A stretch of 64,000 bases of DNA, from the NCBI RefSeq assembly GCF_006345805.1, contig NC_043016.1, forward strand, positions 1,984,001-2,048,000, written 5' to 3'. Positions 2,447 through 47,736 of this stretch are shown here, piece after piece; the first letter of the stretch is position 1; the number at the start of each line of letters is the position of its first letter. The notes below the pieces were generated by a model that was not told the DNA's origin, searched no databases, and worked only from the letters and a program-made list of their open reading frames with translations. The stretch comes from Octopus sinensis (lineage: Eukaryota). The position numbers and the translations under genes were made by a program.

Positions 2447-2795
2447 GGCTCAGGCATGGCTGAACAGTAAGAAGCTTGCTTCTTAACTATATAGCCTTGG
2501 GTTCAGTACCACTGCGTGACACCTTGGCCAGGTGTCTTCTACTATAGCCTTGGGCTGACCAAAGCCCTGTGAGTGGATTTGGTAAACGGAAACTGAAAGA
2601 AGACCGTTGGGTACATGTGTGTGTGTTTATGTATGTGTCCCTGTCTTTGTCTTTGTCACCCACCACTGCTTGACAACCGTGTGAGTGTGTTTACGCCCCT
2701 GCAACTTAGCTGTTCAGCAAAAGCGATCAATAGAGTAGAAAAGTAACAGGCTTAACAAAAACGCAAATACTGGAGTTGATTCATTAGACTAAAAT
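2447..2795 (+). mobile_element. SINE family 1
   Basis: tRNA-like head (tggctgaacagtaag...gggttcagtaccactgcg; B box GGTTCAGT), internal (TG)n and body shared with the other copies. Confidence 0.85.
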
Positions 2796-2810
2796 TAGAC
2801 AATAATATAT

Positions 2811-2842
<32 letters not shown>

Positions 2843-2871
2843 ATATTATTATATATATATATATATATATA

Positions 2872-3250
2872 TTCTTTTACTTGTTTCAGTCATTTGACTC
2901 CGGCTATGCAGGAGCACCACCTTTAGTCGAACTAAATTTTGTAAGGACTAAATTTTTGTAAGCCTAGTACTTATTCTATCGCTCTCTTTTGCCGAAAGGC
3001 TAAGTTACACGCCAACATCGGTTGTCAAGCGATGGTGGTGGGGTGACAAACATAAACACAAATAACAAACACATACACATATATATACGACGGGCTTCTT
3101 TCAGTTTCCGTCTACAAATCCACTCACAAGGCTTTGGTCGGCCCGAAGCTATAGTAGAAAACACTTGCCCAAGGTGCCACGCAATGGGCCTGAAACTGGA
3201 ACCATGTGGTTGGTAAGCAAGCTTCTTACCACACAGCCACTCCTGCGCCT
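2872..3250 (-). mobile_element. SINE family 1, near full length
   Basis: Minus strand runs from ggcgcaggagtggctgtgtggtaagaagc (A box) to the tail ...agtcaaatgactgaaacaagtaaaagaa. Confidence 0.9.
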
Positions 3251-3375
3251 ATAAATGAAAGGAAGATTCGACCTCGGCCGAATTTGAATTCAGGACATAA
3301 AGACAGAAGAAATGCCGTTCATCATTTTTCTGGCATGTGAACGATTCGACCGGCTCGCTCACCATATATATATTG

Positions 3376-3637
3376 CGGAGATGTACTTGCATAGCAGGTG
3401 ATCTGATCTGAGATCGTGTGCTGAAACAAAAACAACTGCAGCGTGGAATCCATTCAAAAACACATGAAGAACCGTTTGATTCACTTTAACATTTCAAATT
3501 TAATTTGTCAAAATATTTTCGTCGCTCTGAGACCGCGACCTGTTCACTGACAAAATTCCGTACTGAAGTGAATCTAACGGTTTTTTTATGTGTTTTCAAA
3601 TGGCTTATAAACACCTTCAACGCTGCAGTTGTTTTTG
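3376..3637. mobile_element. Small fold-back element with hammerhead-like motif (probably Penelope-like-derived)
   Basis: Inverted arms 3427-3486 / 3566-3637 (caaaaacaactgcagcgt...gattcactt / aagtgaatc...acgctgcagttgtttttg). Related pieces at ~53560-53625 and ~54500-54590. Confidence 0.65.
3504..3554 (-). ncRNA. Minimal type-I hammerhead ribozyme motif, G3:C8 core variant
   Basis: UUUGUCA-GUGAACA-G-GUCGC(ggucucaga)GCGAC-GAAA-AUAU-UU-UGACAAA: 7-bp stem I, 5-bp stem II, palindromic stem III. Confidence 0.6.
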
Positions 3638-4149
3638 TATATATGAGGATGAGAGATTGGCAGGTGAACTGACATCGGGCTACCAAATTCACCTGCAAAT
3701 TAATGGTCGTGTCGGTATTGCAGTAACAAACAGTTGCACGGGGTTTGCCGCACAATGGGATTGAACTCCAAACCATGCATGCGGATTGTGGATTGTGAAC
3801 GACTTGACGACGGTGTAAATGGCGAAAACTGAAGGTTGGAATTTATGGAACCGATAAAAGAAAATATCAATACAAGTGTGTTATTTCATTCGATCTCTAT
3901 CAGTCCTCCTGCCCTTCACGACTTGGGCTTTCGAGGAATGAGCTTATAAAGTTGGGGATGTGTTACCGGGAGTGGGGTGGGGGTACATGTGGTGGTGGAA
4001 GGAGCAGTGTCTGAAACTGCCATAGGAATTGGTTCAGCAGTACTTTTCACAGCTACTTCCGGTCCAGGTAGGTAGTGGGTGGAAATGTGATCCTGTATCG
4101 ACTGCATAACTAGTTTTCTGAGGGCTGAGTTCCCACTCTGGCAATAGTA

Positions 4150-4870
4150 TTTGGTGGTGGTGGCGGTGGGGTGGTGGTGGCGGTGGGGTGGTGGTGGCGG
4201 TGGGGTGGTGGTAGCGGTGGGGGGTGGTGGCGGAAAGAAGCTGTGGTGGGGGAGCTGAGTTGTTGTTGTTGGAAATGGTGACAATGGTGGAGCTGGAGTC
4301 GAATGCGACGGTGGTGGTGATGGGGGTAGCGGCGGCGACGGCGGTGCTGGTCGGTTTTAGGGGTTGCGTTGGTGGTGGTTTTTACAAGTGATGGTAGTGA
4401 TGTTGCCTCACGAGTCGGTGCTAAGTGGTTGTGATGGCGTTGGTGGTAATTGTGGTGGTGGAGATGGTGGTGGTCGCTCGTGTATAGAATGGGTAGAATG
4501 GGTTCCAGTGGTCTTAGTACTGGTGGTAGCTGACGTGTTAATGGTCATGATGGCACTAGCCATAGTATTAATGAGAAAGAGAGAAAGAAAGAGACGGTGA
4601 GGGATGGCGATAACAGATTGATGGGGGTGGAACAGGCAGTGCTCGTGGCGTGGTATTGATGGGGCGGTGGTGGTGGTGGTGGTGGTGGTGGTGTTGGTGG
4701 TGATAGTGGTGCTTTAGGGATAGTGGTGGTGAGGGAGCGGTGAAACGTCTACGGTGCCGGCATTATGGATGATGATGTTGCTGATGTTGTCGGTGGTGGT
4801 GGTAGTGGTGGTGGTGGTGGTGGTACTGATGGTATTGGTGGTGGCTGTGGTGGCGGGGCTGGGGGGGGAC
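4150..4870 (+). repeat. Degenerate (GGT)n simple-repeat tract
   Basis: Long GGT/GGC/GAT triplet runs, followed by a (CAA/CAG)-rich tract at ~5010-5110. Confidence 0.9.
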
Positions 4871-5634
4871 ACGCAGGGCCGGGGGTCGGGGTCGGCGGAG
4901 AGGTGTTGGTGTTTAATCTCCACTTTTAATTCAATTGACAGTCATAAGCTTTCTTTACGGCAGTCCCAAAGCACCAATCACTACCATTCACATCACTGCC
5001 ATCACTCAGCAACAGCAACAACAAACTCAGCAGAGGCAACAACAACAGCAACAACAACCACAAAACCAACGGCAACACGAAAAACAGCAACAATATCGAT
5101 AGCAACAACATTGACGAATATCACAACACAAATGCACAAACATTAACATTCATATAAATATAGGTTACAATGATCATAGGCTCAAATATCTACACACATG
5201 TGTGTATGAATGCGTGTGTGTATGTACGTGTGTATAATGTATGTGTGTTTGTATGTGTGTATGTATGTATGTATGTATGTATGTATGTATGTATGTATGT
5301 ATGTATGTATGTATGTTAGAGTGAGTGTCTGTATTGAATGCATGTATACATGTCCGCGTCAGTTGTATCTTTATCTTATATATATATATATCAAGATAAA
5401 GATGTGTATATGAACATGTGTGTATATGTATTCATAAATACTTACATATGCACACGCACACACACATATAGATAAATACATACATGCATACATACATACA
5501 TACATACATACATGTAGATAGATAGATAGATAGATAGATTGATAGATAGATAGATAAACCACACACACATATACATATACATGTTTGCGTATGTGCGTGT
5601 ATTCATATATACGTGTGTGTATGTGTATATGCTT

Positions 5635-5673
<39 letters not shown>

Positions 5674-6458
5674 TATAGATATATATATATATAATATTAG
5701 GCATATAAACATACATATACATGTATATATAACACAAACGCACACATCTATTTAACTGTTCATCTATTAGTCTATCTACCTATCTAGTTATCTTTCTCTC
5801 TCCTCCGCACTCTCTCCCTATTTCTCTCTATCTTTCTTTCTCTCCTCTCTCTATCTATCTACTTATCTATCTATATATCTATATAGATATATATATATAT
5901 GCATACATACATTGAAGAAAGAAAATACGAGATAACATTACGATGTTAGTTTGTGCATGTGTATGATGTGTATGTGTGTAAGAGAGAGAGAGAAAGTGAA
6001 TGAGAGGAGAAAGAGAGAGAGAGAGAGAGAGCTATGTGTGTCTAAAGAGTGAGTGAGAGCGGGAGAGAGAGAGAGAGAGAGAGAGAAGAGAGAAGGTAAG
6101 GGTAGGACAAAAGAGATCAATGAACACGAGACATTTTCAGACCAGCTTCGTAATCTCAAAGAGACTTTTTTTTTATTTCCTCAGACATAAACACCATATG
6201 GTATATACACCGTATATACACAGAGTATACCATGTACAGCACATGCAAAATACATTAATAGTGAATTATCTCGTTGGTTTTATTCGGATTTAGAAGGATA
6301 TACCCTTTCGTTGACATTTCTCGATAGATTAAAGTACTCTGTCTCTCTTTCTCTCTCAAAGGCACACCCCAACACCCGACTCTGGAAACACACACCATAC
6401 ACATAGGCACACACAGACACTACGCATATGTATACATATACGTGTATATATATGTGTA

Positions 6459-6505
<47 letters not shown>

Positions 6506-6836
6506 GTCTATATATGCATATATAATATACGTACATCTGTATACATATAATATATCAAATACGCACACACACACACACAAATATATGCATATATATAAAC
6601 AAATATATATACATATATACATGTTATATATATACACAAACGCATATATGTATATTTACATATGTACACATATACATGATCTGTGAAAAACATATGCTAT
6701 TGACTTTAATATTATCATATATATCTATATATATATATGTGAGCATATATATTTATATATTTGTATATCATGTATGTTTATTTATATAGATTTGTATATC
6801 TGTATATGTATGAACATACAAACATTTACACATTGC

Positions 6837-6873
<37 letters not shown>

Positions 6874-7889
6874 GAACATGTATAACCAGCCATATACGTG
6901 CACACATGCGTACATAGTAATGTCAAAATTATAAACCGATTCAAATGACACCCCCTACCCCTCCCTTAACTCCGGCATATACATAAATACGTATATGCAA
7001 AAACGGTACATGCCTTTTAGTCTGTATAAATACATATGTGTCTGAAAGAGCGTGCATATATAAGTACACACACACATATTATATATATATATTATATATA
7101 CACGCACCACACATATGTACATATTTAAAGTATAAATACGCATTTATATGTGTATATCTGTGTGTATATATATATATATATGCACATAATGTATTTATGT
7201 GTTTACGTGTGTGTGTGTGTGTGTGTGGTATATATATATATATATTATATATAATATATATATATATACACGCACATAAAATCCATATGCACACACCACA
7301 CACACACACACACACACATAGACTATCGCTCACACACACACGTAGACACCCACACACGCGCATACACACACACACACATAGACTATCGCTCACACACACA
7401 CGTAGACACCCACACACGCGCATACACACACACACACATACTCATAGTACCTTCGACCTAAATTCCAAGAGAAAGTATGAATTTCATTCTGATGTATGGA
7501 AAATCTCAAGTACTCGGTGGTTGTGCATGTACATATGTGGCATCTGTATATACGCTTATTGCTAAGCGAATTTGAATGCACTTATACACACACACACACA
7601 CACACACACGCACAATAATAAAAATATTTGAGAGCATTATATACATATATAAATAATTACGCTTCTGTTTGATTTTTATGCATATAACACATACACATGC
7701 TTTTATCTTTTTATTCTTTTATACGTTTAATCCCAAAGTATGTGGCCATGCTGGAGCAGTAACGTTGGCATCGCCTTTTCAGTGGACATTCTTATGCGAC
7801 TGGCTTTTGATGGAGGAGGGATTTCGTCACAACTGCCCACTTTTCACCTGCTTTTCGTGATAGAGGTTCATCTGGTACAAAGTAGATAT

Positions 7890-8892
7890 ATACATTCATG
7901 CATACATACATGCATGCATACATGCATACATACATACATGCATGCATACATACATATATACATGCATGCATACATACATACATACATACATACATACATA
8001 CATACATACATACATACATAATACATACTACATACATACATACATAATAGATACTATACATACATAGATACATACATAAAACACATAATACATACATACA
8101 CACATACGCGCATCCAGCATGCATACATACATGCATACTTACATACATACATACATACATACATACACATACACGCATACATACATACATACATACATAC
8201 ATACATACATACATACACATACATACATACATACATACATACATACATACATACGTACATACATACACACATACATACATACATACATACACACATACAC
8301 ACACACATGCATGCATACATACATACACACAAACTTACATACATACATACATACCTACACACATACATACATACATAAATGCATACATACATACATACAT
8401 ACATTCATACATACATTCATACATACATACATACATACAAACATACATTCATACATACATACATACGTACGTACTACATACATACATACATACATACATA
8501 CACACTACACACACACATGCATGCATACATACATACACACAAACTTACATACATACATACATACCTACACACATACATACATACATAAATGCATACATAC
8601 ATATACATACTTACATACATACATGCATAATACATACATACATACATACATACATACATACATACATACGCACATACATACATACATACATACATACATA
8701 CATAAATACATACATACATACATACATGCATACATACATACATACATACATAAATACATACATACATACATACATGCATACATACATACATACATACATA
8801 CATACATACATACATACATACATACATACATACATACATACATGCATACATACATACATACATATATACATACAAACATACATACGTACATA
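7890..8892 (+). repeat. (CATA)n microsatellite, ~1 kb
   Basis: Direct inspection. Contains an internal ~90-bp block repeated at 8301 and 8511. Confidence 0.97.
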
Positions 8893-10020
8893 CAGGGTGC
8901 AGTGAATAAGATTTCCCCTAAATTACACAAAGTTGAAAATAACATTGACTTTTTCCAAACAACTTGCACATGCAGGTGCTACCAGTCGAAAGCCCTACAT
9001 ACCGGAAGGCAGCAAGTGTATGGGGTCATCAGGAGAGATTGCACGCCATTTCGGGGCCTACCTCTCGACGGCATCAATGCGCACCGCCCCGACCACCACA
9101 TCAGTGACATGAAGTCCCACTTGCTAGATCAGTTGCTTATTAGGTTTCGCTCAGTATTCTTCTAGCCATTGCTCATTGTCTCTTTTTAACCAAATCCAGT
9201 GGCTAGCCTTCTCCACTGTAGTTTGAATATCGCTCATTTTAATAGATAAATTTACCAAAATTACATAAAAATATCCTGAAATACTAAAGAGAAACTTTAT
9301 TCAATAAAAAGGCCATTCGTTTCAACCACGGCCTCCAGACGATTTCAGAAGCTCTTCTAGACAGCCTCCTTGTTTAAGTTGGTGAATGCTGCCATAATCC
9401 TTGCCTTCAGTTCATCCTTGGGGTTACAAGGACTTTTGTTGGTTTCTCACTCAACTGTGCCCCACACATTATAATCAAGGGAGTTGCAGTCTGGAGAGTT
9501 TGGTGGCCAGATGTTAGGGGTGATGTGTTCGCAGAAATTGTCTGACAGCCTGTGTGGCATGGTGTAGAGTTGCCAGACATAGGGTCTTCCAGCAGCCACC
9601 CTCTTAACCCAAGGCAGCACTACTTCCACCATGGCACTTGATGTAGGCCTCCATGTTGAGTCTGAGGCTGTGTAAAAAGACGAGTGGAAGCATAATGACG
9701 CCATCGCTAGTGATCACTTCACACACCATGATGTTGACTGGATGTTTGATTTTTATCACTCTCAGTAAATGTCCTCAGATTGCGCTGCCCTCAGACTGAC
9801 ACCCAAACACTCTGAAATGTTCGTATTGGAGCTTCCAGCGCGAATGCCAAGTAATGCAACATGTCGTTTCCAAATTACGTCATGGTGCTGTTTTCTCACG
9901 AGCGGTGTCCAACTCACCCTACTGTACTGTGTAATCGACAAAATGAAAAACAAAACAATGCGCATGCGCATGCGCGAATTAAGAAATATTAGATGGCGAT
10001 GATTTACCCATCGCACGCTG
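8893..10020 (-). mobile_element. Decayed, internally deleted Tc1/mariner element (maT/DD37D-like)
   Basis: Transposase C-terminal motifs GRPYVWQ...SDNFCEHITPNIWPPNSPDCNSLDYNVWGTVE; degenerate TIRs TA|cagggtgcagtgaataa and ttacccatcgcacgctg. Confidence 0.8.
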
Positions 10021-11700: not shown

Positions 11701-12330
11701 TTGTTTGGTATCTTAAAGACAACAATAATGATTTTAAGTTAGATTGCTTCATCCTGTCCATATCTTTCCCTTATAAGGGTAAAGGATTTTGTAACATTTG
11801 CAACTCTGGATTCTTCCTTATTCTCTTCTCTTCTCTTTATAAATCACCTTGTTAACACACTTATAATGTAAGCACTGGCAGAAACATGCTTTCAGCTCAT
11901 ATAAGTGATTTATACCAGTCTTTATAGTTTGAACATTTAGTTCACCTTGCACTTTACTTCAATAGAGAAATCTACTTCTATGCCTTTGAACATTTTTTCA
12001 ACCAATATATCCCTCTTTATTTGTTCTCTACTTATTATTTCTTTAACCCTTCTATTTCAAGTATCTGCCTTTGACGTCGAATCTACTAACGGCTTTTTTA
12101 AATAATTAATAGCGTTCTGTTTATCATTTATGCAGTCATCAAAATTGTTATAATGTCTTGTTGTTGAGATAGGTTCTCTGTCTTTCCTGATGAGAAGATT
12201 GCATTTTACACCGTTTATTCCTTGGAATAAAACCAATGTTGTCTTCGAAACATATGTCGAAAGTAAAAGAATTTGAATAGCATCTGCGTTCAACTCCATT
12301 TATTTACTTATATATATATTATATTATAAT

Positions 12331-12362
<32 letters not shown>

Positions 12363-12594
12363 ATATACATATACATATATATACAGTGTATATAGTACAC
12401 ACAGGCCCTTGCGCACGTACATATTATATACACACATGTATATACACACATACACACACACACATATACACATACTCATACTTATACATATGCATATACA
12501 TGCATTTACGGGTGTGTGTATATATAAATATATATATAACGGGAAAGTTTACGAAAATAAACAAAAGGCACGCATAAGTGGATTGGTTACAACC

Positions 12595-13116
12595 CTAGCA
12601 TAGGTCACAATGTTACGGTCACACTTGCGTTTGCCGAGTCTTCTCAGCACAGCATATTTCCACAGGTCTCGGTAACTAGTCATTGCCTCGGTGAGGCCCA
12701 ATGTTTGATGGTCATGCTTCACCACCTCATCCCAGGTCTTCCTGGGTCGGCCTCTTCCACGGGTTCCCTCAACTGCTAGTGTTTGACACTTTTTCATACA
12801 GCTATCCACATCCATTCCCGCTACATGACCATACCAGCGCAGTCGTCTCTCTTGCACGCCACGTCTGATGCTTCTTAGGTCCAACCTTTCTCTCAGGGCA
12901 CTAACACTCTGTCGAGTATGCCCACTGACATTACACATCCATCGGATTATGCTAGCTTCATTCCTTGCGAGCTTACGCATGTCCTCAGCAGTCACGGCCC
13001 ATGTAGCATGGCTGTTCGTACACATGCGTCGTACAGTCTACCTTTTACTCTGAGCGAGAGCCCCTTTGTCACCAGCAGAGGTAAGAGCTCTCTGAACTTA
13101 GCCCAGGCTCGTACTC
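12595..13116 (-). mobile_element. RTE-clade LINE, 5'-truncated 3' fragment
   Basis: RAWAKFRELLPLL..KGRLYDACVRTAMLHG..TWA..RRLRWYGHV..GTRGRGRPRKTW is the typical RTE ORF C-terminus. Confidence 0.9.
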
Positions 13117-13761
13117 GCGATCGTTGGTAACGCCCGAAAGCTCGCGGTCTTGCGCGCGTCAACGTGGACGCCACTGCGACGAGTCCTCGACAGAACCGTG
13201 GCTTCAACTCCGGGTGTCGCTGGATCGCCGCCGCAACGAGCATCGTCCTCCTCCACGTCTCAGGTTGCTGTTCAGCGGCGTCGGTGCCCGCTCTTCCGCG
13301 CGTTTTCTCGGCATCACCGCCTTGGCGCGTTGTCGCGGCTGACGCCAGCGACCACCGTCATCGCACTCGCTCGTTGACCGCAGTCCGGACGCACTTCCCC
13401 TCCGATCCGTCATCGCGACCCGTTCATGTCGGCCCGGTAGGCGCGCGGCGTCCGCAGGTCGCAGACGAGCGCCCCACCGCCGTCGGCTTCACGGCCGGCT
13501 GGCATCGAGACACACTCACTTCTCTCGACCGTGCCCATCGCTTCACGAAAGCGCAGGCACGGCTAATTGACGGAGACAGGCTAACGCACCTCGCCCTCAC
13601 TAAGCACGACGCGGCCGCCTGCGTGCTGTCGCGTCGCCTCCCTCGCGACAGGGTGACGCGCAGCGGTCGCGTGACCGCTCGAAAAGCCGCCCACTGCCGC
13701 CCAGTCAGCGACGAGCATCGGCAACATATCCGACACTTCTTGAAACACAGACCGAGAAGTC
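13117..13761 (+). rRNA. Orphan (pseudogenic) 28S rDNA fragment: D2 expansion segment plus the following conserved core
   Basis: GC-rich island ending ccgacacttcttgaaacacagaccgagaagtc (13730-13761), 27/32 identical to the universal 28S motif CCGACCCGTCTTGAAACACGGACCAAGGAGTC. D2-like gcgcactt...gagcgcc and gtcagcgacga..tcggc landmarks lie upstream. Confidence 0.8.
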
Positions 13762-13763
13762 CC

Positions 13764-13781
13764 AGTAACTATGACTCCCTT
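13764..13781 (+). other. 28S sequence immediately upstream of the R2 insertion site
   Basis: agtaactatgactccctt, 17/18 identical to AGTAACTATGACTCTCTT(AAGG/TAGCCA). Confidence 0.8.
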
Positions 13782-16700
13782 TCGTGGAGCCTGGTGCGTT
13801 ATCACCTTCTGTTTTTTCAGTAGGTGGATGCACCACCAGGTTTGTTTGGTATGTTATGACTTGCCGAGACTCAGTGGGTGGATGCGCCACCGTCATGCCC
13901 TTTTTGGGGGCGTCTGGTGTGTTATGACCCGCTGTTTTTGTTCTCGGTAGGAGGATGCATTTCCAGGCATCCTTATGGACACTACCTTGGCGTGGTGAAA
14001 GAGCTTACGCCCGCGTGGGGAGCTATGACGGATAGGTTCAACCATGCCAGATAGGTGCCCTCACATTGGACAAACTAAACGTGCCCATCTCCCCAAAGCG
14101 GTGCCAATTTATTTGGTAGGGGACCATGTAGTATATGGGTGACCCTGGTTGGGAGGTGTAGGCCTCCCTGTTAGGGTGTGTGGACGGCCGCTGTTCTGCC
14201 CTCTAATAGTCCCGAGCCGGCTAGTTAGATGCCGGCCCTGTTTAGCTTTCTTTCATTGAGGTGTAGAGTCGTGTAAGTTCCCAACAGGACTATAGTAATT
14301 TAACAGTTCGATCTTTCATCATCTTACAACACATTGGGGTCCTTGGTTGTTTGGGAGGATCGTGCTTAGGTTTTTTGCTATCTTGTCTTGTATGGGGGGG
14401 GGCGCTCTTGGCATTTCGGGTGGTTCCTTGATAGGGACAGGTGAATTCTATTAGGCCCGGTTGGCAATACTTGTACGTAATGACCCGTGTTGGTGGTGAG
14501 TGGAGGCCCGGTGCTTTATGACCTGCTATCTTTTGCAGCAGGTGGATGCACCACCCTGTTTGTTTGATATGCCGGGATTCAGTGGGTGGATGCGCCACCG
14601 TGATTCCCTTTTTGGGCGTCTGGTGTGTTATGACCCACTGTTTTTGTTCTCGGTAGCTGGAGGCATTGCCAGACTTTGCTCTTTCAGGACTCACTACTGG
14701 CAACGGATGGATGCACTACCAGGCGAAACCCTCCGTGGCATGCACTTTGGTGTTAGTTGGTTGGCCGGTGGGTACTCTAGATGGTTGGGGTGGTGGTTGT
14801 TAGCGTATCATGGTGGGGTTGGATTCGCACTTTCTTTCAGTTCAACTTAATCGCTTCATGGAAATTGCCGCGCGGATAAAGACATGATTGGAAATAAGTC
14901 TAAAAACATACGACAACTAGGTGCTGTTAAACTGGTGGCCTGCGGGTCAGGGACGGGGCCCGCAGGACAGGCTGGGCGTGATACCCTCCTACGCTCGGCC
15001 GCTTTGCTGCCTTCTTCTGTGGTGGACAGAAGGTCATCTCCGCCGCATGGTATAGATAGTGACCCACATGGTAACGACTCTACTAGCGTCGGGCGCTAAG
15101 TACGCCCGACGTTGACGTACACATGAAATAGTCAGGGCCTTTTACGCTAGAATACCCTAGCCATACCTTGGTAGTGAGGGGCTTTCAGCTCCTGCCGGAC
15201 TTAGCACATACAGCCTCCATGACTGTCTTTCTTTAGAAGTGGACCTGGAGGAGGACGTGGGGGTATCAAGCTTCACGCTGGCTGGGAGCGAATTTTCGCT
15301 GCCCATTCCCTGCGCTTCATGCTCCAAAGCCTGTCCGTTATGTTCTCAGCGCTTCTCTTCTCCCCGACGATGGGGAGAAGATATAGAGGGTAGACACGGC
15401 GTGAAGCCGGTCTACAGGTGCAGTAAATGTGATAGGGAGCGCGGACACCTTCATTCTATGAGGTGTCACGTTGGCAAGTGCAATGGTACATCTGGTGAGT
15501 CTGCTTCTGGTCCTGCTCAGTCCCTCTTCGAGTGTGGCCCCTTGCAGCCGTTCTTTTTTGACGGCTGCAGGTCGATCTCAGCACGAACGCCACAAACATT
15601 CTTTGGCTGCGAATGCGCGCAGGATAGTTGCTCATAAGGAGCAGCTGGCTAAGAAACGTGCGGATCGAACAGCCTCCACCTGACGAGGAAGTAGCGATCC
15701 TCGTCGAGAAGGAGGCCGAGCTATTAGCAGCCGGGGTTAGGCATATCAATGTTGCCGTAGTACGGTTCCTACTGGGCAAAACTGCCAAACAGGTAGGAAC
15801 CAAGAGGGTAGTTCTGGCCAAAAAGACTTCAGTGAGTCCTCAAAGATCGGAGCTGCCGACTGCCAACTCCCATTCACAAGTCGAGGACATATCTTTTCCT
15901 TGCCCTTATTGGAGAGATCGTTTCCAAGACGCTGCATGTCCCGGGCATACCCCTTGGTTCGCCGTCTTCTCCGAGGCCCTATTGGAACTCGTAGAAGACG
16001 TGACCGCGGGTGCCTGGGATTCTTTTGATAGAAGCGTGGAGGACTGGGTGGAACATCGTAGATTGCGTAGGGAAGATTCTACCAGAGTGGCTGATAGAAA
16101 TAGAGCTAGGGCAGTTGATAGGCCTAGAGTTCGACGGCGAACAAGCTGTTAAGATATGCCCGCCACCAGGATTTGTATAAAAAAGATAGGAAGAGTCTCA
16201 TTGCAGGCGAGGATGCGGAGCACGGGTGCCCGATCCCTATGCCCGCTACAGAGGCTCTCCTCTCCGGGCCCTGAGGTGGATCTCTCCGACTATCCCGCCT
16301 CCTCCCAGATCGATAACGGTCCTATTTTGCAGCCGTTCTCAATGGAGGAGGTGAAAATGAGTCGGAGGAAAATGAATCCTGCCTCAGCGGCGGGTCCAGA
16401 TAGACTTACTGTCCGAGAGATTAAGTCCATGGTCCCCTGTATTCTCGCTAATATATGTAACTGCATGTTACTGGCCGGGAAGGTTCCCGATATCCTGAAG
16501 TGGGGTAGGTCCGTCCTCATACCTAAGAGAACGATCCTATAGATTTAACCAATTGGCGGCCGCTGACGATATGTTCAGCGGTATATCGTCTGTTTTCGAA
16601 GATGGTCGCCAAGAGAATGCTTCAGGTAACTCCCCTAAATCCAGCCTAGCGTGTATTTATCCGGGCTGACGGCTGCAGGGAGAATTCTTTTCTCCTGCGG

Positions 16701-17030
16701 CAGTTAGTCAGCCGCGCGATGGGGTGGCCAGCACGACTGAGAATACCGCGACTGGAGGTTGCCTTCATGGATCTCGCACTCTTTGGTGTATGCGGGACTG
16801 CTTGGGTTTCACGAACACGTTTTAGCGCTCGTGGAGGGGATCTATGAAGGTAGCACTACCAGATTTTCAGTCATCGAGATTCGCCAGAGTGTTAGGCAAG
16901 GGGATATGCTCTCGCCGATCCTCTTCAAAATCGCGACTAACCCGAAGTTAGATATTTTATCGGACAGTGGGGGGGTCTACGTGTTGAGGGGATCTGGGTG
17001 CGGCAGCTTATCGTGGGGACGAGTATGACC
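13782..17030 (+). mobile_element. R2 non-LTR retrotransposon (R2-A type, three zinc fingers plus Myb), decayed and 3'-truncated
   Basis: Across frameshifts: CPLC..(D)..H, CSKC..H...C, CGPCSRSF...SQHERHKH; Myb-like EEVAILVEKEAELLAAGVRHINVAV..GKTAKQVGTKR; RT SAAGPDRL, GRSVLIPK, NWRPLTICS, RQSVRQGDMLSPILF. Follows the 28S target sequence. YADD and the endonuclease are missing. Confidence 0.88.
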
Positions 17031-17769
17031 TTAAGAAAGAGAACCACTCTACATAAAGAGCAAATCTGTTTCCCGCAATACAGGCAAATTCCTCTCGGTG
17101 AACATATAGAAAAAATTGCAGATAACATCAAACCAAATTTCAGTCTTCCCCTTCTACCAGTGCAAAGACACAATCTCTCCACAAGAAATTTTTTTCATTA
17201 AAAAATACAAAACACGTCTTGACATGTACGCATAACCAACTTTTACTTTTTTAAATATTTCAATTCACGATTACATCACTGTACATAAATCCCCCACTAA
17301 GCGAAGTTTTCGAAATCTTTTTTGTCTGTACATATATATTCCCCTCCTCTTACCGAAAGCTGAACAGTAATCTCCCTTACCTACAACAATAACAATAACA
17401 ACGATAACCAATTACCTCCCCTTATTTTTCAACTTGTGAAGTCATCCGCTCGTAAATATCATCACACACAACATAGACAAAATTTCTTCTTAAGAAATAC
17501 ATATTCTCCTGAATGGATCATAACAAAAATGAATGGTTCGTGAAGTCATCCAGTATCACGTATATAAATATTTACAGATATTTTATTGGATGGCAGTTGA
17601 CTGTTCAGGAATTCTTCCACCCTTTCACGGGTTTTAACTTTCATCCCGCAGGGTGTCCAACAACACCCTCCTCACCAAGCAAGCCTGGTAGAGTTGCCAG
17701 TTTAGTCGCCGACGATCCGACCATGCGACAAGTTATACTGAATTACATGTTACCAGCACCACTCAAGAA

Positions 17770-18230
17770 CGACCTGTCTGTGATTGGAAAGGTACTTGCC
17801 CGCATTTTGTTAGAACGTTTAAATACCTTCATAGTTCCAAATATAGTGTCTGAGTCTCAGTTTGGTTTTCGTTCCTCCAGGGGCAGAGCTGATTGTATCT
17901 TTACTATAAGACAATTACAAGAACAGTGCATTGAACAGAATCTTGCTTTATACCACTGCTTTGTTGATTTGAGCAAAGCATTCGATACTGTTAATTGAAA
18001 TGCTCTGAGGTTAATTCTAAGAAAATAGGTTTGCTAGAAAGATTTGTAAACATGATCAGGGATTTAATCAAATATGAAAGCTAGAGTTAACTCTGATGGT
18101 AGGCTCTCTGAATCTTTTGCTGTTGAAAATGGAGTAAAACAAGGATACCTTGATGCACCCATCCTCTTTGCAATATACTTTGCTGTTGTGTTGTCACATG
18201 CTTTTCAAAACTCTGTGAGTGTCTTTTCAG
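17770..18230 (+). mobile_element. RTE/BovB-like reverse transcriptase fragment
   Basis: LSVIGKVLARILLERL..ESQFGFRSSRG..DCIFTIRQLQEQCIEQN..FVDLSKAFDTVN ... NGVKQG..APILFAIYF. Confidence 0.88.
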
Positions 18231-18329
18231 AACATTGCCTGGTTTAAAAAGCTACATCAGATGCCATGATGGTTCTAAGATGTGGGTACAGGAGGTGGTC
18301 AAACTCGCCATAAGGAGTAGACAACCACC

Positions 18330-19070
18330 ATGTATGTATGTATGTATGTATGTATGTATGTATGTATGTATGTATGTATGTATGTATGTATGTATGTATG
18401 TATGTATGTGTGTATGTATGTATGTACGTACGTACGTACGTATGTATGTATGTATGTATGTATGTATGTATGTATGTATGTATGTATGTATGTATGTGTG
18501 TATGTATGTATGTATGTATGTATGTATGTATGTGTGTATGTATGTATGTACGTACGTACGTACGTATGTATGTATGTATGTATGTATGTATGTATGTATG
18601 TATGTATGTATGTATGTATGTATGTATGTATGTGTGTATGTATGTATGTATGTGTGTATGTATGTATGTATGTATGTATGTATGTATGTGTGTATGTATG
18701 TATGTATGTATGTTTGTATGCATGTATTTATGTATGTATGTATGTATGTATGTATGTTTGTATGTATGCATGTATTTATGTATGTATGTATGTACGTACG
18801 TACGTATGTATGTATGTATGTATCTTTGTATGTATGTATGTATGTATGTATGTATGTATGTTTGTATGTATGTATGTATGTATGTATGTATGTATGTTTG
18901 TATGTATTTATGTATGTATGTATGTATGTACGTACGTACGTATGTATGTGTGTGTGTATGTATGTATGTATGTGTGTATGTATGTATGTATGTATGTATG
19001 TATGTGTGTATGTGTGTATGTATGTATGTATGTATGTATGAATGTTTGTATGTATGTATGTATGTTTGTA
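18330..19070 (+). repeat. (TATG)n microsatellite
   Basis: Direct inspection; TACG/TGTG interruptions. Confidence 0.97.
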
Positions 19071-37794: not shown

Positions 37795-40625
37795 CTTCTT
37801 TCAAATTTGCGTCCATTCTTGCCGAGTGTCTTCCCGACTCCTAGGGCAGAGAAACTCATAGTATACATTGGTAGGCCATTAAACTAAACTCACTAGTTCG
37901 TCATTTTTTAATTTTTTAAGTTAAATTAAAATACATGGGTAGTAATAGTTCTCACATCGACAATGCTCTTCTCAATACGTGTGATGTACCAGTTAAGACA
38001 ATCTTTTGCACTTCTTGCAGGGATGGTAAGCCAGGGATCATTCTCATATAATTTTCGGTTCCCTTCTTGATCATTCCTAGTGCTCCTACGATCACTGGTA
38101 TTGTAACCGCCTTGAGATGCCATATTTTCTCAATTTCAATGAGCAGGTCTTTATATTTTCTGAGCTTGTCAAACGCTTTCACCGAGATATTATGATCACA
38201 GGGGATGCTCATGTCGATCAATAAGCAAACTTTATTGTTTTTGTCTTTCACAACATTATCTGGTTTATTGGCCTTGGTGGTTCGGTCTGTATGTACTGGA
38301 AAGTCCCACAGAATGGTTACATTTTCTCCTTCAGTTACAGCTTCAGGGTGGTTATTATACCACTTGTAGGCAATTTTGATATTGCAATGCCGATTTATTA
38401 GCCAGTGTAGATATTGGCCAACTCTGTCATGTCTTAATTTATATTCCACTGGTGCTAAGACTTTACATCCAGAGATTAGGTGGTCCACTGTTTCAATCAT
38501 GTCGTTGCAGAATCGGCATTTTGGGTCTGCTCCATTTTTCCTCACATTGGCCTGGTAGTTCCGGATTAATAGGCTTTGATCTTGAGCAACCAGGATGAAA
38601 CCTTCGTTTTCTGCTTTTAGCCCTGAGCTCCGTAGCAACTGATGGGTTTGCTTCTCGTCAACATCAGCTTGTTTGCTGCGGGCCACATATTTGCCGTGCA
38701 GAGGTTTCTCCTCCCACCTATCAGCCAATTGCTCGTGCGCTTTCTTCATTGCCATCATTTTCACCTTCTTTGCAACAATAGTTGCCGTACTTCCCTCGGG
38801 TTGTTCAGTTTGGGTATCCTGCACGAGATCAATAGCAAATTTTTTGCTTTCCTTTATGATAGAATGAAGCTTCTTTCGTCTCTCGTGATTTTCCACGAGC
38901 TTAGCATCCAGTCATTCGTTATTTCAAGATATTTGGCCAGTCCAATTGTGGTTGTTTTGTAAGCTAGTTCAAATTGGATCAAGCCTCGACCTCCTTGGGC
39001 TCTGGGAAGGTAAAGGCGATCTACGTCTGCCTTTGGGTGGTGCATCCTATTACAACTCAGCAGCTTGCGTATTTTCCTATCTATATTCTTTACTTCACTC
39101 ATATTCCAGTTCAACACATTGTAGCTATAAGTAACAACTGGAACTGCTAAGGAATTTATAGCTAACACCTTGTTACGTGCATTTAGTTCAGATTTCAGGA
39201 CTGCACGAACTCTCCTATAACATTCCTTCCTGATCTTCTCTTTCATGCTTGCATGCTGAATACCAGAGCCTTCATTTATCCCTAAATATTTGTATGTTTG
39301 TTCTTGCTCAAGCTCTCTTATGACTGTGTCAACATCTAACACGACTGAATTTATGGTCTTCACTTTCCCTTTCTGGAGAGTGGTCTTGGCACACTTCTCA
39401 AGCCCAAACTCCATCCCGATGTCATCGCTGAATGCTTTCACAGTGTGCAATAGGCCTTCAAGTTCATTATTGTCTTTACCATAAAGTTTTAAGTCATCCA
39501 TATAAAATAGATGGCTTATTTTTTTATTGGCAATTTTATACCCATACCCTGTTCTGTTTAATTCACTTGTAAGGGGTATTAGGGTTATGCAGAATATTAA
39601 AGGTGAAAGTGAGTCACCTTGAAAAATTCCACAGTTGATGTTTATATTTTCTGAGGCAAGTACTCCATTAGAGTGGTATAATTGGAGATTATAGGCGGCG
39701 AAAAGTCGGCGAGCTAGCAGAATCGTTAGCACGTCGGGCGAAATGCTTAGCGGTATTTCGTCTGCCGTTACGTTGTGAGTTCAAATTCCGCCGAGGTCGA
39801 CTTTGCCTTTCATCCTTTCGGGGTCTATAAATTAAGTACCAGTTAAGCACTGGGGTCGATATAATCGACTTAATACCTATGTCTGTCCATGTTTGTCCCC
39901 TCTATGTTCAGCCCCTTGTGGGTAATAAAGAAATAGGTATAATTGGAGATTCGTATTCCACAACGACATATTGTGCTTCAGGAAGCTTGAAATCACAGGG
40001 GAAATTTTGAAGATGTCCATCGATCTCAAGATCCATGGATGCGGTATACTGTCGAAGGCCTTTTTGTAGTCAATCCATGCGGTGCTGAGATTTCTGCGCT
40101 TGTTGTGACAGTTCTCAATGATCATACGATTGATTAGCAGTTGATCTTTGCATCCGTAAGAGCCTCGGCGGCACCCTTTTTGTTCAATGGGGAAAATATC
40201 GTTCTTCTCCATGAATGCATATGTTTTCTCCGCCAGGATAGATGTTAGGATTTTATACGTGGTGGACAGACAGGTTATAGGCCGATAGTTTTTGGAAGGT
40301 TGGTTTCGTTATTCTTTGGGAGTAGGTAAGTAATGCCACTTGCTAACCATTCAGGTGTCTTCTTTGGGTCTCTCATAATTCCATTAAGCAGCTGAACTAG
40401 CTTACCGTGTGCGCATGGGAGCGATGCGAGCCAGAAATTCGGCACCCTATCTTTACCGGAGGATTTCCAATTATGGGCCTTCGTGAGTGCCTTTCTTAGG
40501 TCTGCTATTGTGATGTCTTCCCATGCTTGTTGTTGTAAATTTTGGTAGGATCCTTCTGTTTGTATAATCCAGTCTGCATTTATGTTGTACGTCTTCTTGT
40601 CATTCCAAATCCATTTCCAAAAGTT
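37795..40625 (-). mobile_element. R4/Dong-clade LINE, 5'-truncated, with RT, CCHC and restriction-like endonuclease
   Basis: EQKGCRRGSYGCKDQL, WIDYKKAFDS, GIFQGDSLSPLIFC, HLFYMDDLKLY, CRFC..ETVDHLISGC, ILWDFPVHTD..ANKPD..LIDMSIP..K..KY; ORF stop at 37952. Confidence 0.95.
39694..39937 (+). mobile_element. Full-length SINE family 2 inserted in the R4/Dong RT, with target-site duplication
   Basis: TSD ggtataattggagatt at 39675-39690 and 39936-39951. Confidence 0.93.
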
Positions 40626-46607: not shown

Positions 46608-47736
46608 GTGTGAGGTAATATATCTCGACTTTGAAAAAGCCTTTGATAAAGTCGACCATGGTATGATCTGTCACAAACTGCGTGGTCTCGGCATAGGCGG
46701 AAAACTTGGAGAGTGGCTGCACAACTTCCTAAAAGACAGAAAACAGGCAGTTGTGACCAATGGAGCCACCTCCAAGGAAACACAAATAACAAGCGGTGTC
46801 CCACAGGGCACTGTCTTGGGGACACTGCTGTTCATAGTGGCCCTTTCGGACATGCCCTCAGTTGCTACGATGGCCACCCTTGCTAGCTATGCAGATGTCA
46901 CAAATGTCTCCCACGCAATACAACACCCTGAATTGCAAGAATTGCAATCCCTGAGTTAAAACCAGTGCGTGACCTGGCATTGACCATGAGCAATGATGCA
47001 TCTTCCAATTGCATATTGCTAATCTGGTGATAAAATGCAGACGGCTAGCTGGATGGATTCTCCAACTTTCAGAACAAGAGAGAGGAGACACTGATGGTCT
47101 TGTGGAAAAACATCGTCCTCAGCCGCTTGGACTACTGCTCCCAACTGTGGTCACCACACATATAAAACTAACAGCAGAACTCGAAGCAATTCAGAGAAGC
47201 TACACAAAGAAGATGTCTCAATGCAAAATATCAGCTACTGGGAAAGACTGAAAGTATTAAACCTCTTCTCCCTAGAGCGGAGGTGGGAGAGATACGCGGT
47301 TGATATACATCTGGAAAATCCTGGAGGGTCTTTGTCCCAAACTTTGGCATTCAAAGTTACTCCAACCGCAGAACGGGGCCGCGCCGCTGCGTGGTGCCAA
47401 GGATTCCAACAAACACCATCAAAATACAGGTCCAGATGCTGCAACAGCTTGGGTTTCGGAGGACCACAGCTCTTTAACATCCTCCTAAATGCCTGGAGCG
47501 ACTTACATGTGTGGATGTTGGGTTTCTTTAAAACTAAACTGGATCTTTTCTTGTCGGGGGTCCCAGATGAACCTACCTCACGACAGGAGACACGGATGCG
47601 GGCAGCGGCATCGAACTCCCTTTTGATCAAGTGCCACGTATCAGAGGTTGATTCACATATTAGTGTAGCTCATTCAGCGGTGGTGCCCCAGCATGGCCGC
47701 GGCCTCGGGCTAAAACCATTTTAAGGATTTAAGGAT
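46608..47736 (+). mobile_element. CR1-group LINE, 5'-truncated (right arm of an inverted pair)
   Basis: VIYLDFEKAFDKVDH, SGVPQGTVLG.LLF, YAD; ~150-bp internal deletion near 46930; same 3' tail. Confidence 0.9.

Follow-up and report, generated by a model that had tools for sequence, protein, structure and literature searches.

A dead three-finger R2 element with collinear rDNA fragments in Octopus sinensis, likely the remains of an R2-inserted rDNA unit

Structure of the locus

The window considered here is a stretch of 64,000 nucleotides of Octopus sinensis DNA, of which positions 12000-18500 were read, with each part searched against the animal's own genome (2.72 Gb). The features of this range, from a LINE piece on the left, through pieces of the rDNA spacer, 5'ETS and 28S D2 and a broken R2 element, to a repeat on the right, are collected in Table 1. 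The pieces stand in the order of the rDNA unit, spacer included, and lie outside the array, so that the locus is an rDNA orphon. The dead three-finger R2 and its three collinear rDNA scraps likely derive from a single rDNA unit with an R2 insertion.

Table 1. Features of the locus (positions in the window)
Feature	Position	Strand	Remarks
LINE piece, 5'-truncated, high-copy	12549..13109	-	about 2 nt overlap with the rDNA block
rDNA intergenic-spacer repeat piece	13108..13181	+	similarity to spacer copies
5'ETS piece, older rDNA type	13185..13397	+	similarity to rDNA copies
12-nt word common to ETS and D2 at their join	13386..13397	+	
28S D2, 3' part, up to ...GAAGTCCCAGT	13386..13766	+	alignment to the genome's 28S
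28S flank upstream of the R2 site, -22 to -5	13764..13781	+	first 3 nt, AGT, are the D2 end
R2 5' untranslated region	13782..14850	+	internal duplication, 13784-13966 versus 14500-14672, 82%
HDV-like ribozyme core (predicted), P2/P3/P4	13977..14086	+	
Broken R2 ORF	14851..17004	+	three fingers, Myb, part of RT
Finger 3	about 15332-15397	+	first His lost
Finger 2	15419-15481	+	CCHC
Finger 1	15533-15599	+	frameshifted
Myb	from about 15682	+	
RT, first half	16273-17004	+	ends ahead of YADD, the RT active site; endonuclease absent
High-copy repeat piece, different from R2	17019..17506	+	right neighbour of R2

On the left, 35 of 39 other copies of the LINE piece begin at the base matching 13109 (40 of 3244 candidates scored). 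The first-pass annotation had the block abut a truncated RTE element of the opposite strand, and the abutment stands; the RTE label, which follows that annotation and motifs of the sequence, is without a Pfam RT match. Rightwards, the R2 similarity extends to about 17004 and the next high-copy repeat runs from 17019, so the element is shorter than its annotated extent, to 17030, though its start at 13782 holds. This repeat is presumably Penelope-like, judged by a GIY-YIG-type motif beside an RT; Pfam gave no GIY-YIG match. By eye, no target-site duplication is evident at the outer ends. Neither further rDNA nor the remainder of R2 was found elsewhere in the window (for R2, by tblastn) or within 10 kb on either side of it. 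Two more regions of the window, 38075-40290 on the minus and 46612-46896 on the plus strand, contain decayed LINE RT sequences, the former with a weak likeness also to the C-terminal endonuclease region of R2.

The rDNA pieces

A query of 13100-13790 gave 46 matches in the genome, and the best of them other than the window itself cover 13386-13766 and are 28S genes. The D2 piece is 87.5% identical to L113 over 368 aligned columns. Rfam finds LSU and 5.8S in the partner loci L005 and L011; in the window, between 8000 and 22000, it gives no LSU match at E<=1, its sole matches there being microsatellite-driven miRNA hits under the gathering score. The window D2 is thus called 28S because it aligns to the genome's own Rfam-positive copies. 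Of the roughly 640 bp annotated as 28S D2, this identity belongs to 13386-13766, while 13117-13385 is composed of a spacer repeat and 5'ETS.

The spacer piece (13108-13181) is 81-87% identical to the older spacer fragments L134/L135/L097. In L112, L120 and L122-L124 it matches several repeats of each spacer at 79-85% identity, in stretches of 27-36 nt. It corresponds to sequence lying about 170 bp upstream of a TATAGG-like motif that occurs 3-5 times per spacer and may, by its resemblance to one, be the Pol I start; the piece is therefore probably outside the pre-rRNA. In L097, an old-type copy, the counterparts of the spacer and ETS pieces are 354 bp apart with such a motif between them, and in the window the distance is 15 bp. 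In five of the six fetched stretches that include the start of 18S, the match to the ETS piece stops some 530 bp short of it (in L112 an Rfam scan places this start at L112:5730). The identity of the ETS piece to L003 is 90.7%, and every piece differs from its nearest copy by 9-15%. L003 itself (1483-1705, contig C11) is about 220 bp of 5'ETS lying within a LINE-like stretch, flanked by a duplication of about 23 bp.

The joins

Two joins, ETS/D2 and D2/R2-site, were measured to the base, and the one between spacer and ETS was located less exactly. At the ETS/D2 join the two pieces overlap by 12 nt and 5571 bp of the unit is absent. No other 12-mer is common to the ETS (1.5 kb compared) and the 5' part of 28S (2.3 kb compared); all 12 nt are shared in L112 and L123, and 11 of 12 in L120, L122 and L124. 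An overlap of at least 12 nt arose from random breakpoints once in 200,000 draws. At the D2/R2-site join the overlap is AGT, and the distance between the two 28S motifs, annotated as of the order of 2 kb, is 2339 bp of absent 28S as measured in L115. Random breakpoints give an overlap of at least 3 nt in 7.4% of draws, which makes AGT a weak overlap. Neither of the two joins contains untemplated bases. The two extra C seen by the first-pass annotation after the D2 stretch are templated, because the host 28S itself reads ...GAGTCCCAGT at this point. Each join has a single match in the genome with up to 2 mismatches allowed; the D2/leader junction thus does not recur elsewhere, which the annotation had proposed to look for, and the D2 end was accordingly rejected as a new R2 target.

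The R2 element and its lineage

A genome search for intact R2 with 28S junctions, likewise proposed earlier, led to L115, a complete rDNA unit on contig C18 that bears, at 2736-7317, an intact R2 with an ORF of 1311 aa and both normal junctions. This ORF can be aligned with solved R2 proteins as far as the C-terminus, and its three fingers (CCHH, CCHC and CCHH) are intact. An alignment of the window ORF to it comes in 7 blocks and shows 6 frame changes as well as 3 stops inside aligned blocks, and Pfam gives only sub-threshold finger and RT matches on the window pieces. The three fingers, Myb and part of the RT named in the first-pass annotation are all recognisable, fingers 1 and 3 in damaged form. 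The window R2 encodes no working protein and is likely without function.

Queries with the 5' region and the ORF gave at least 57 and at least 51 matches, respectively, at 67-91% identity (40 candidates scored for each). The conserved 28S site is represented in the window by 18 nt at the 5' junction, as annotated, and other family copies show the same stretch with longer 28S. An alignment of D2 runs on loosely into these 18 nt, but their reading as a decayed continuation of D2 was rejected because in sister copies R2 starts at the same base and is preceded by 178-597 bp of true 28S flank. The 3' end of R2 is absent from the window; the 3' junction at TAGCCAAATG is kept in 6 of the 13 family matches that bear the terminus.

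The protein of L115 scores 502-531 bits against three-finger structures and 301-309 bits against 8gh6/8ibw, the first of which we take to be the one-finger silkmoth protein. The scores against R2Tg and 8gh6 are 33.9 versus 21.7 bits for the window RT piece and 263 versus 145 bits for a sister copy, and the window finger region matches three-finger structures only. In a quick tree of 90 rows, built with neither named A-D references nor an outgroup and with 3 of the 90 proteins dropped for short coverage, the window groups with L115 (support 100) inside a group of 40 rows (96) whose proteins mostly have three fingers. Finger number alone is insufficient to define an R2 lineage, according to the available part of PMC13188248; taken with the protein comparisons, the window R2 likely belongs to lineage A. 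Its family is sister to that of L115, with about 66% DNA identity in the RT.

The likeness to lineage A (R2Tg, PDB 9dou/9nl3; PDB 9nl2) extends to the 28S site, the CCHH/CCHC/CCHH fingers, Myb, the RT and a predicted HDV-like 5' fold; in contrast to its published members, the window copy is dead, 3'-truncated and of the family sister to that of L115. Octopus R2s, namely R2-1_OVu, R2-1_OSi, R2-1_ORu and R2-1_ECi, are listed in PMC13188248 Table S2, so that the earlier claim of an R2-A lineage recorded in this genome is supported for a three-finger R2 outside the rDNA array, the lineage itself having already been listed. In a comparison with the first 400 characters of each of six cephalopod rows of that table, L115 closely matches the Octopus rows in its N-terminal protein and the OVu/OSi rows in its 5' end, without being identical to the published R2s; the 5' end of the window family is 200 bp longer and begins none of the six.

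The 5' leader and the predicted ribozyme

The P2/P3/P4 helices of the predicted ribozyme are paired in 87.9% of 182 cells in 13 copies (slid controls: 31-44%), with the structure drawn from the tested sequences themselves and two rows one column off register in P2. Two-sided changes occur in 3 of 14 pairs, and none of 500 shuffles reached the score. The best pairing partner of the strand that follows P3 is 28S starting at G-13 (P1, 6 or 7 of 8 positions), for which reason a cleavage site at -28 was rejected. Three copies outside rDNA (L023, L024 and L026) begin one base after G-13, and the tandem units of L203 start at G-13. The RNA is thus predicted to start at -13, inside the flank retained in the window from -22. 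Self-cleavage of R2 9-36 nt upstream, with duplications of matching length, is described in the accessible text of PMC3774820. The join of D2 to the R2 site lies at -22 to -20 and the predicted RNA end at -13; the retained flank exceeds what the cleaved RNA would contain and so speaks against a leader jump.

R2 copies and rDNA orphons in the genome

The R2-site flank has 29 matches in the genome: 21 with R2 of three families (two of the assignments made by eye), 7 empty and 1 a spacer look-alike. A deletion of more than 1 kb within 1.5 kb upstream is found in 5 of the 21 (4 of them independent), and 28S fills that span throughout in 8. At L205/206 and L209/210, spacer is followed by a deleted 18S-28S region, a full R2 and more than 2 kb of downstream 28S, an extent from spacer to 28S explained only by dispersal at the DNA level; these loci are DNA orphons. 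The rDNA debris at L136 and L140 has joins with overlaps of about 14 and 8 nt, each with 1-2 mismatches, and no R2 near them within the fetched stretches. Comparable joins at L181, L183, L184, L187 and L203 have 0-2 nt of overlap or filler. In L078, a young unit, 1.8 kb of upstream 28S is lost exactly at the R2 junction, and the D2 join of the window may therefore be tied to integration. The genome has at least three R2 families and many orphon rDNA units. With similar debris at many places, the window locus is ordinary.

The 3' end of the window's family has 21 matches, of which 13 keep the terminus. It is followed by at least 22 nt of 28S in 6, by 6-10 nt in 2 and by none or up to 4 nt in 5; off-target reverse transcription thus probably happened in this family.

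Origin of the locus

The decay, at the DNA level, of an R2-inserted rDNA unit is the best reading of the locus and in our view a rather probable one. The unit would have left the array as DNA and collapsed via deletions between short shared sequences, of which the D2/R2-site deletion may date from integration, through repair of the R2-cut site. This is supported by the four rDNA pieces lying on one strand in unit order, the first of them upstream of the putative Pol I start, by the 12-nt overlap at the ETS/D2 join, by the lack of untemplated bases at both measured joins, by the 9-15% divergence of every piece, by the upstream deletions at other R2 copies, by the spacer-to-spacer orphons with similar deletions and by the joins in R2-less debris; the capture of a deleted rDNA unit as DNA, one of two options in the first-pass annotation, is thereby favoured. 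Against it count the weak AGT overlap, the lost 3' end, which leaves the window copy without a downstream 28S junction, the apparent insertion of the window's family outside rDNA, and the several comparable joins with 0-2 nt overlap or filler.

It is rather unlikely that the R2 RT instead copied an uncut pre-rRNA/R2 co-transcript, with two or three template switches at short homologies and off-target integration of the product. The collinear order would be compatible with one transcript, off-target integration is suggested by members of the family whose ends in non-rDNA are precise, and template jumps of the R2 RT by microhomology are described in the part of PMC4117753 available. However, the jumps known from that text run from end to end after up to 5 untemplated bases, whereas those of the window would be internal and have none. 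Moreover, the leftmost piece is a spacer repeat, and both spacer-to-spacer DNA orphons and R2-less rDNA debris show the same type of collapse. A more general proposal, in which the R2 family leaves rDNA by its own RT through copying of uncut pre-rRNA/R2 transcripts with kilobase-skipping internal switches, goes off target with a preferred second site in a high-copy short repeat similar to the 28S cut site, and would have left the window as a fossil capture, seems doubtful to the same degree.

A chimera of rDNA and R2 reads, very improbable in our estimate, might be expected from the difficulty of assembling rDNA and from the uniqueness of each join; yet the 9-15% divergence of every piece from other copies points to a history of its own, and the surroundings are AT-rich and repeat-laden, on a 33 Mb contig. 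Still harder to credit is the other option of the first-pass annotation, in which cDNA of the self-cleaved 28S leader received CC and jumped onto a free 28S rRNA fragment. The 18-21 nt of R2-site 28S left in the window do fall in the size range of leaders, 9-36 nt in the available text of PMC3774820. This option fails in that the CC is templated in the host 28S, so that the joins hold no untemplated bases, in that predicted P1 pairs best at G-13, in agreement with the starts of L023, L024, L026 and the L203 units and short of the flank at -22, and in that the ETS and spacer pieces upstream, in unit order, are left unexplained. That the locus represents an R8/R9-like family retargeted to the D2 end and carrying its old target at the 5' end is scarcely credible, since, although R2 derivatives with moved sites are known (PMC5035012, in part), the D2/R2-site join is single in the genome and other full-length copies sit behind 178-597 bp of normal flank.

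Comparison with known systems

Decay of an R2-inserted rDNA unit has a close likeness in the bird R2 remnants, broken R2 beside fragmented 28S or in non-rDNA, of which the consulted part of PMC5035012 tells; compared with these and with other orphons, the window has three mappable collinear deletions, one of them via a 12-nt shared word. Deletions at R2 5' junctions by microhomology, with 1-3 nt shared and loss of upstream 28S, are a further parallel (PMC3774820 and PMC3190326, both in part). For flies the available text reports losses from a few nt up to about 50 nt (PMC3190326), and for some fish 110-130 bp; in the window, by contrast, 2.3 kb is lost and a 28S-to-28S join lies 18 nt upstream of the element. 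A changed or lost target marks the families R8, R9 and R2NS, which resemble the window in having R2-derived sequence off the normal site, but the join of the window occurs once, and some normal 28S flank is retained by most members of the window's family whose ends are intact.

A literature search that covered 12 of the 16 supplementary files of PMC13188248 yielded nothing on the window locus or on octopus rDNA orphons; R2 in molluscs is already described in the accessible part of PMC5035012. The locus alone matters little, being a dead R2 in rDNA debris from a group in which R2 is already recorded, and the genome-wide survey of R2 and orphons is of modest use. Off-target insertions, if confirmed, would be natural data on the strictness of lineage A R2 targeting, which bears on R2-based gene insertion tools.

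Further observations on R2 and rDNA

Two independent copies of the window's family, at L081:3480-3600 and 8560-8680 (contig C26) and at L153 near 5524 (contig C6071), occupy the same spot of a short repeat. The repeat, ...AAGG/TGCCA, resembles the 28S cut site and is also present in the window near 2542 on the minus strand; L081 has a precise 3' join at it and a 20-bp upstream loss. The short repeat is a possible second R2 target. A degenerate copy of the R2 target lies in the spacer after 28S in L115, at about 9470-9510, and R2 copies are inserted at the degenerate target of the post-28S spacer in L076 and L209.

Tandem R2 clusters occur at L085-L089 (C27), L129-L131 with L151 (C9332), L091-L092 (C3) and L148-L149 (C6). 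The units of the C27 cluster share one 200-bp 28S flank, inside a LINE, and in L131 the 3' end of one R2 directly meets the 5' end of the next. A 1.8-kb R2-type insert in young rDNA units (L078:527-2328, L182 and L199), 94-96% identical between copies, may represent a non-autonomous family of short elements. On many large contigs, among them C2, C3, C4, C17, C18, C19, C20 and C27, the assembly places single rDNA units that are nearly identical (92-97%), whether by real dispersal or by assembly placement. Six unplaced contigs (L193, L194, L196, L197, L201 and L202) hold a compact, empty 28S in an AT-rich context, about 80% like that of the host in its conserved parts and likely from a co-sequenced organism.
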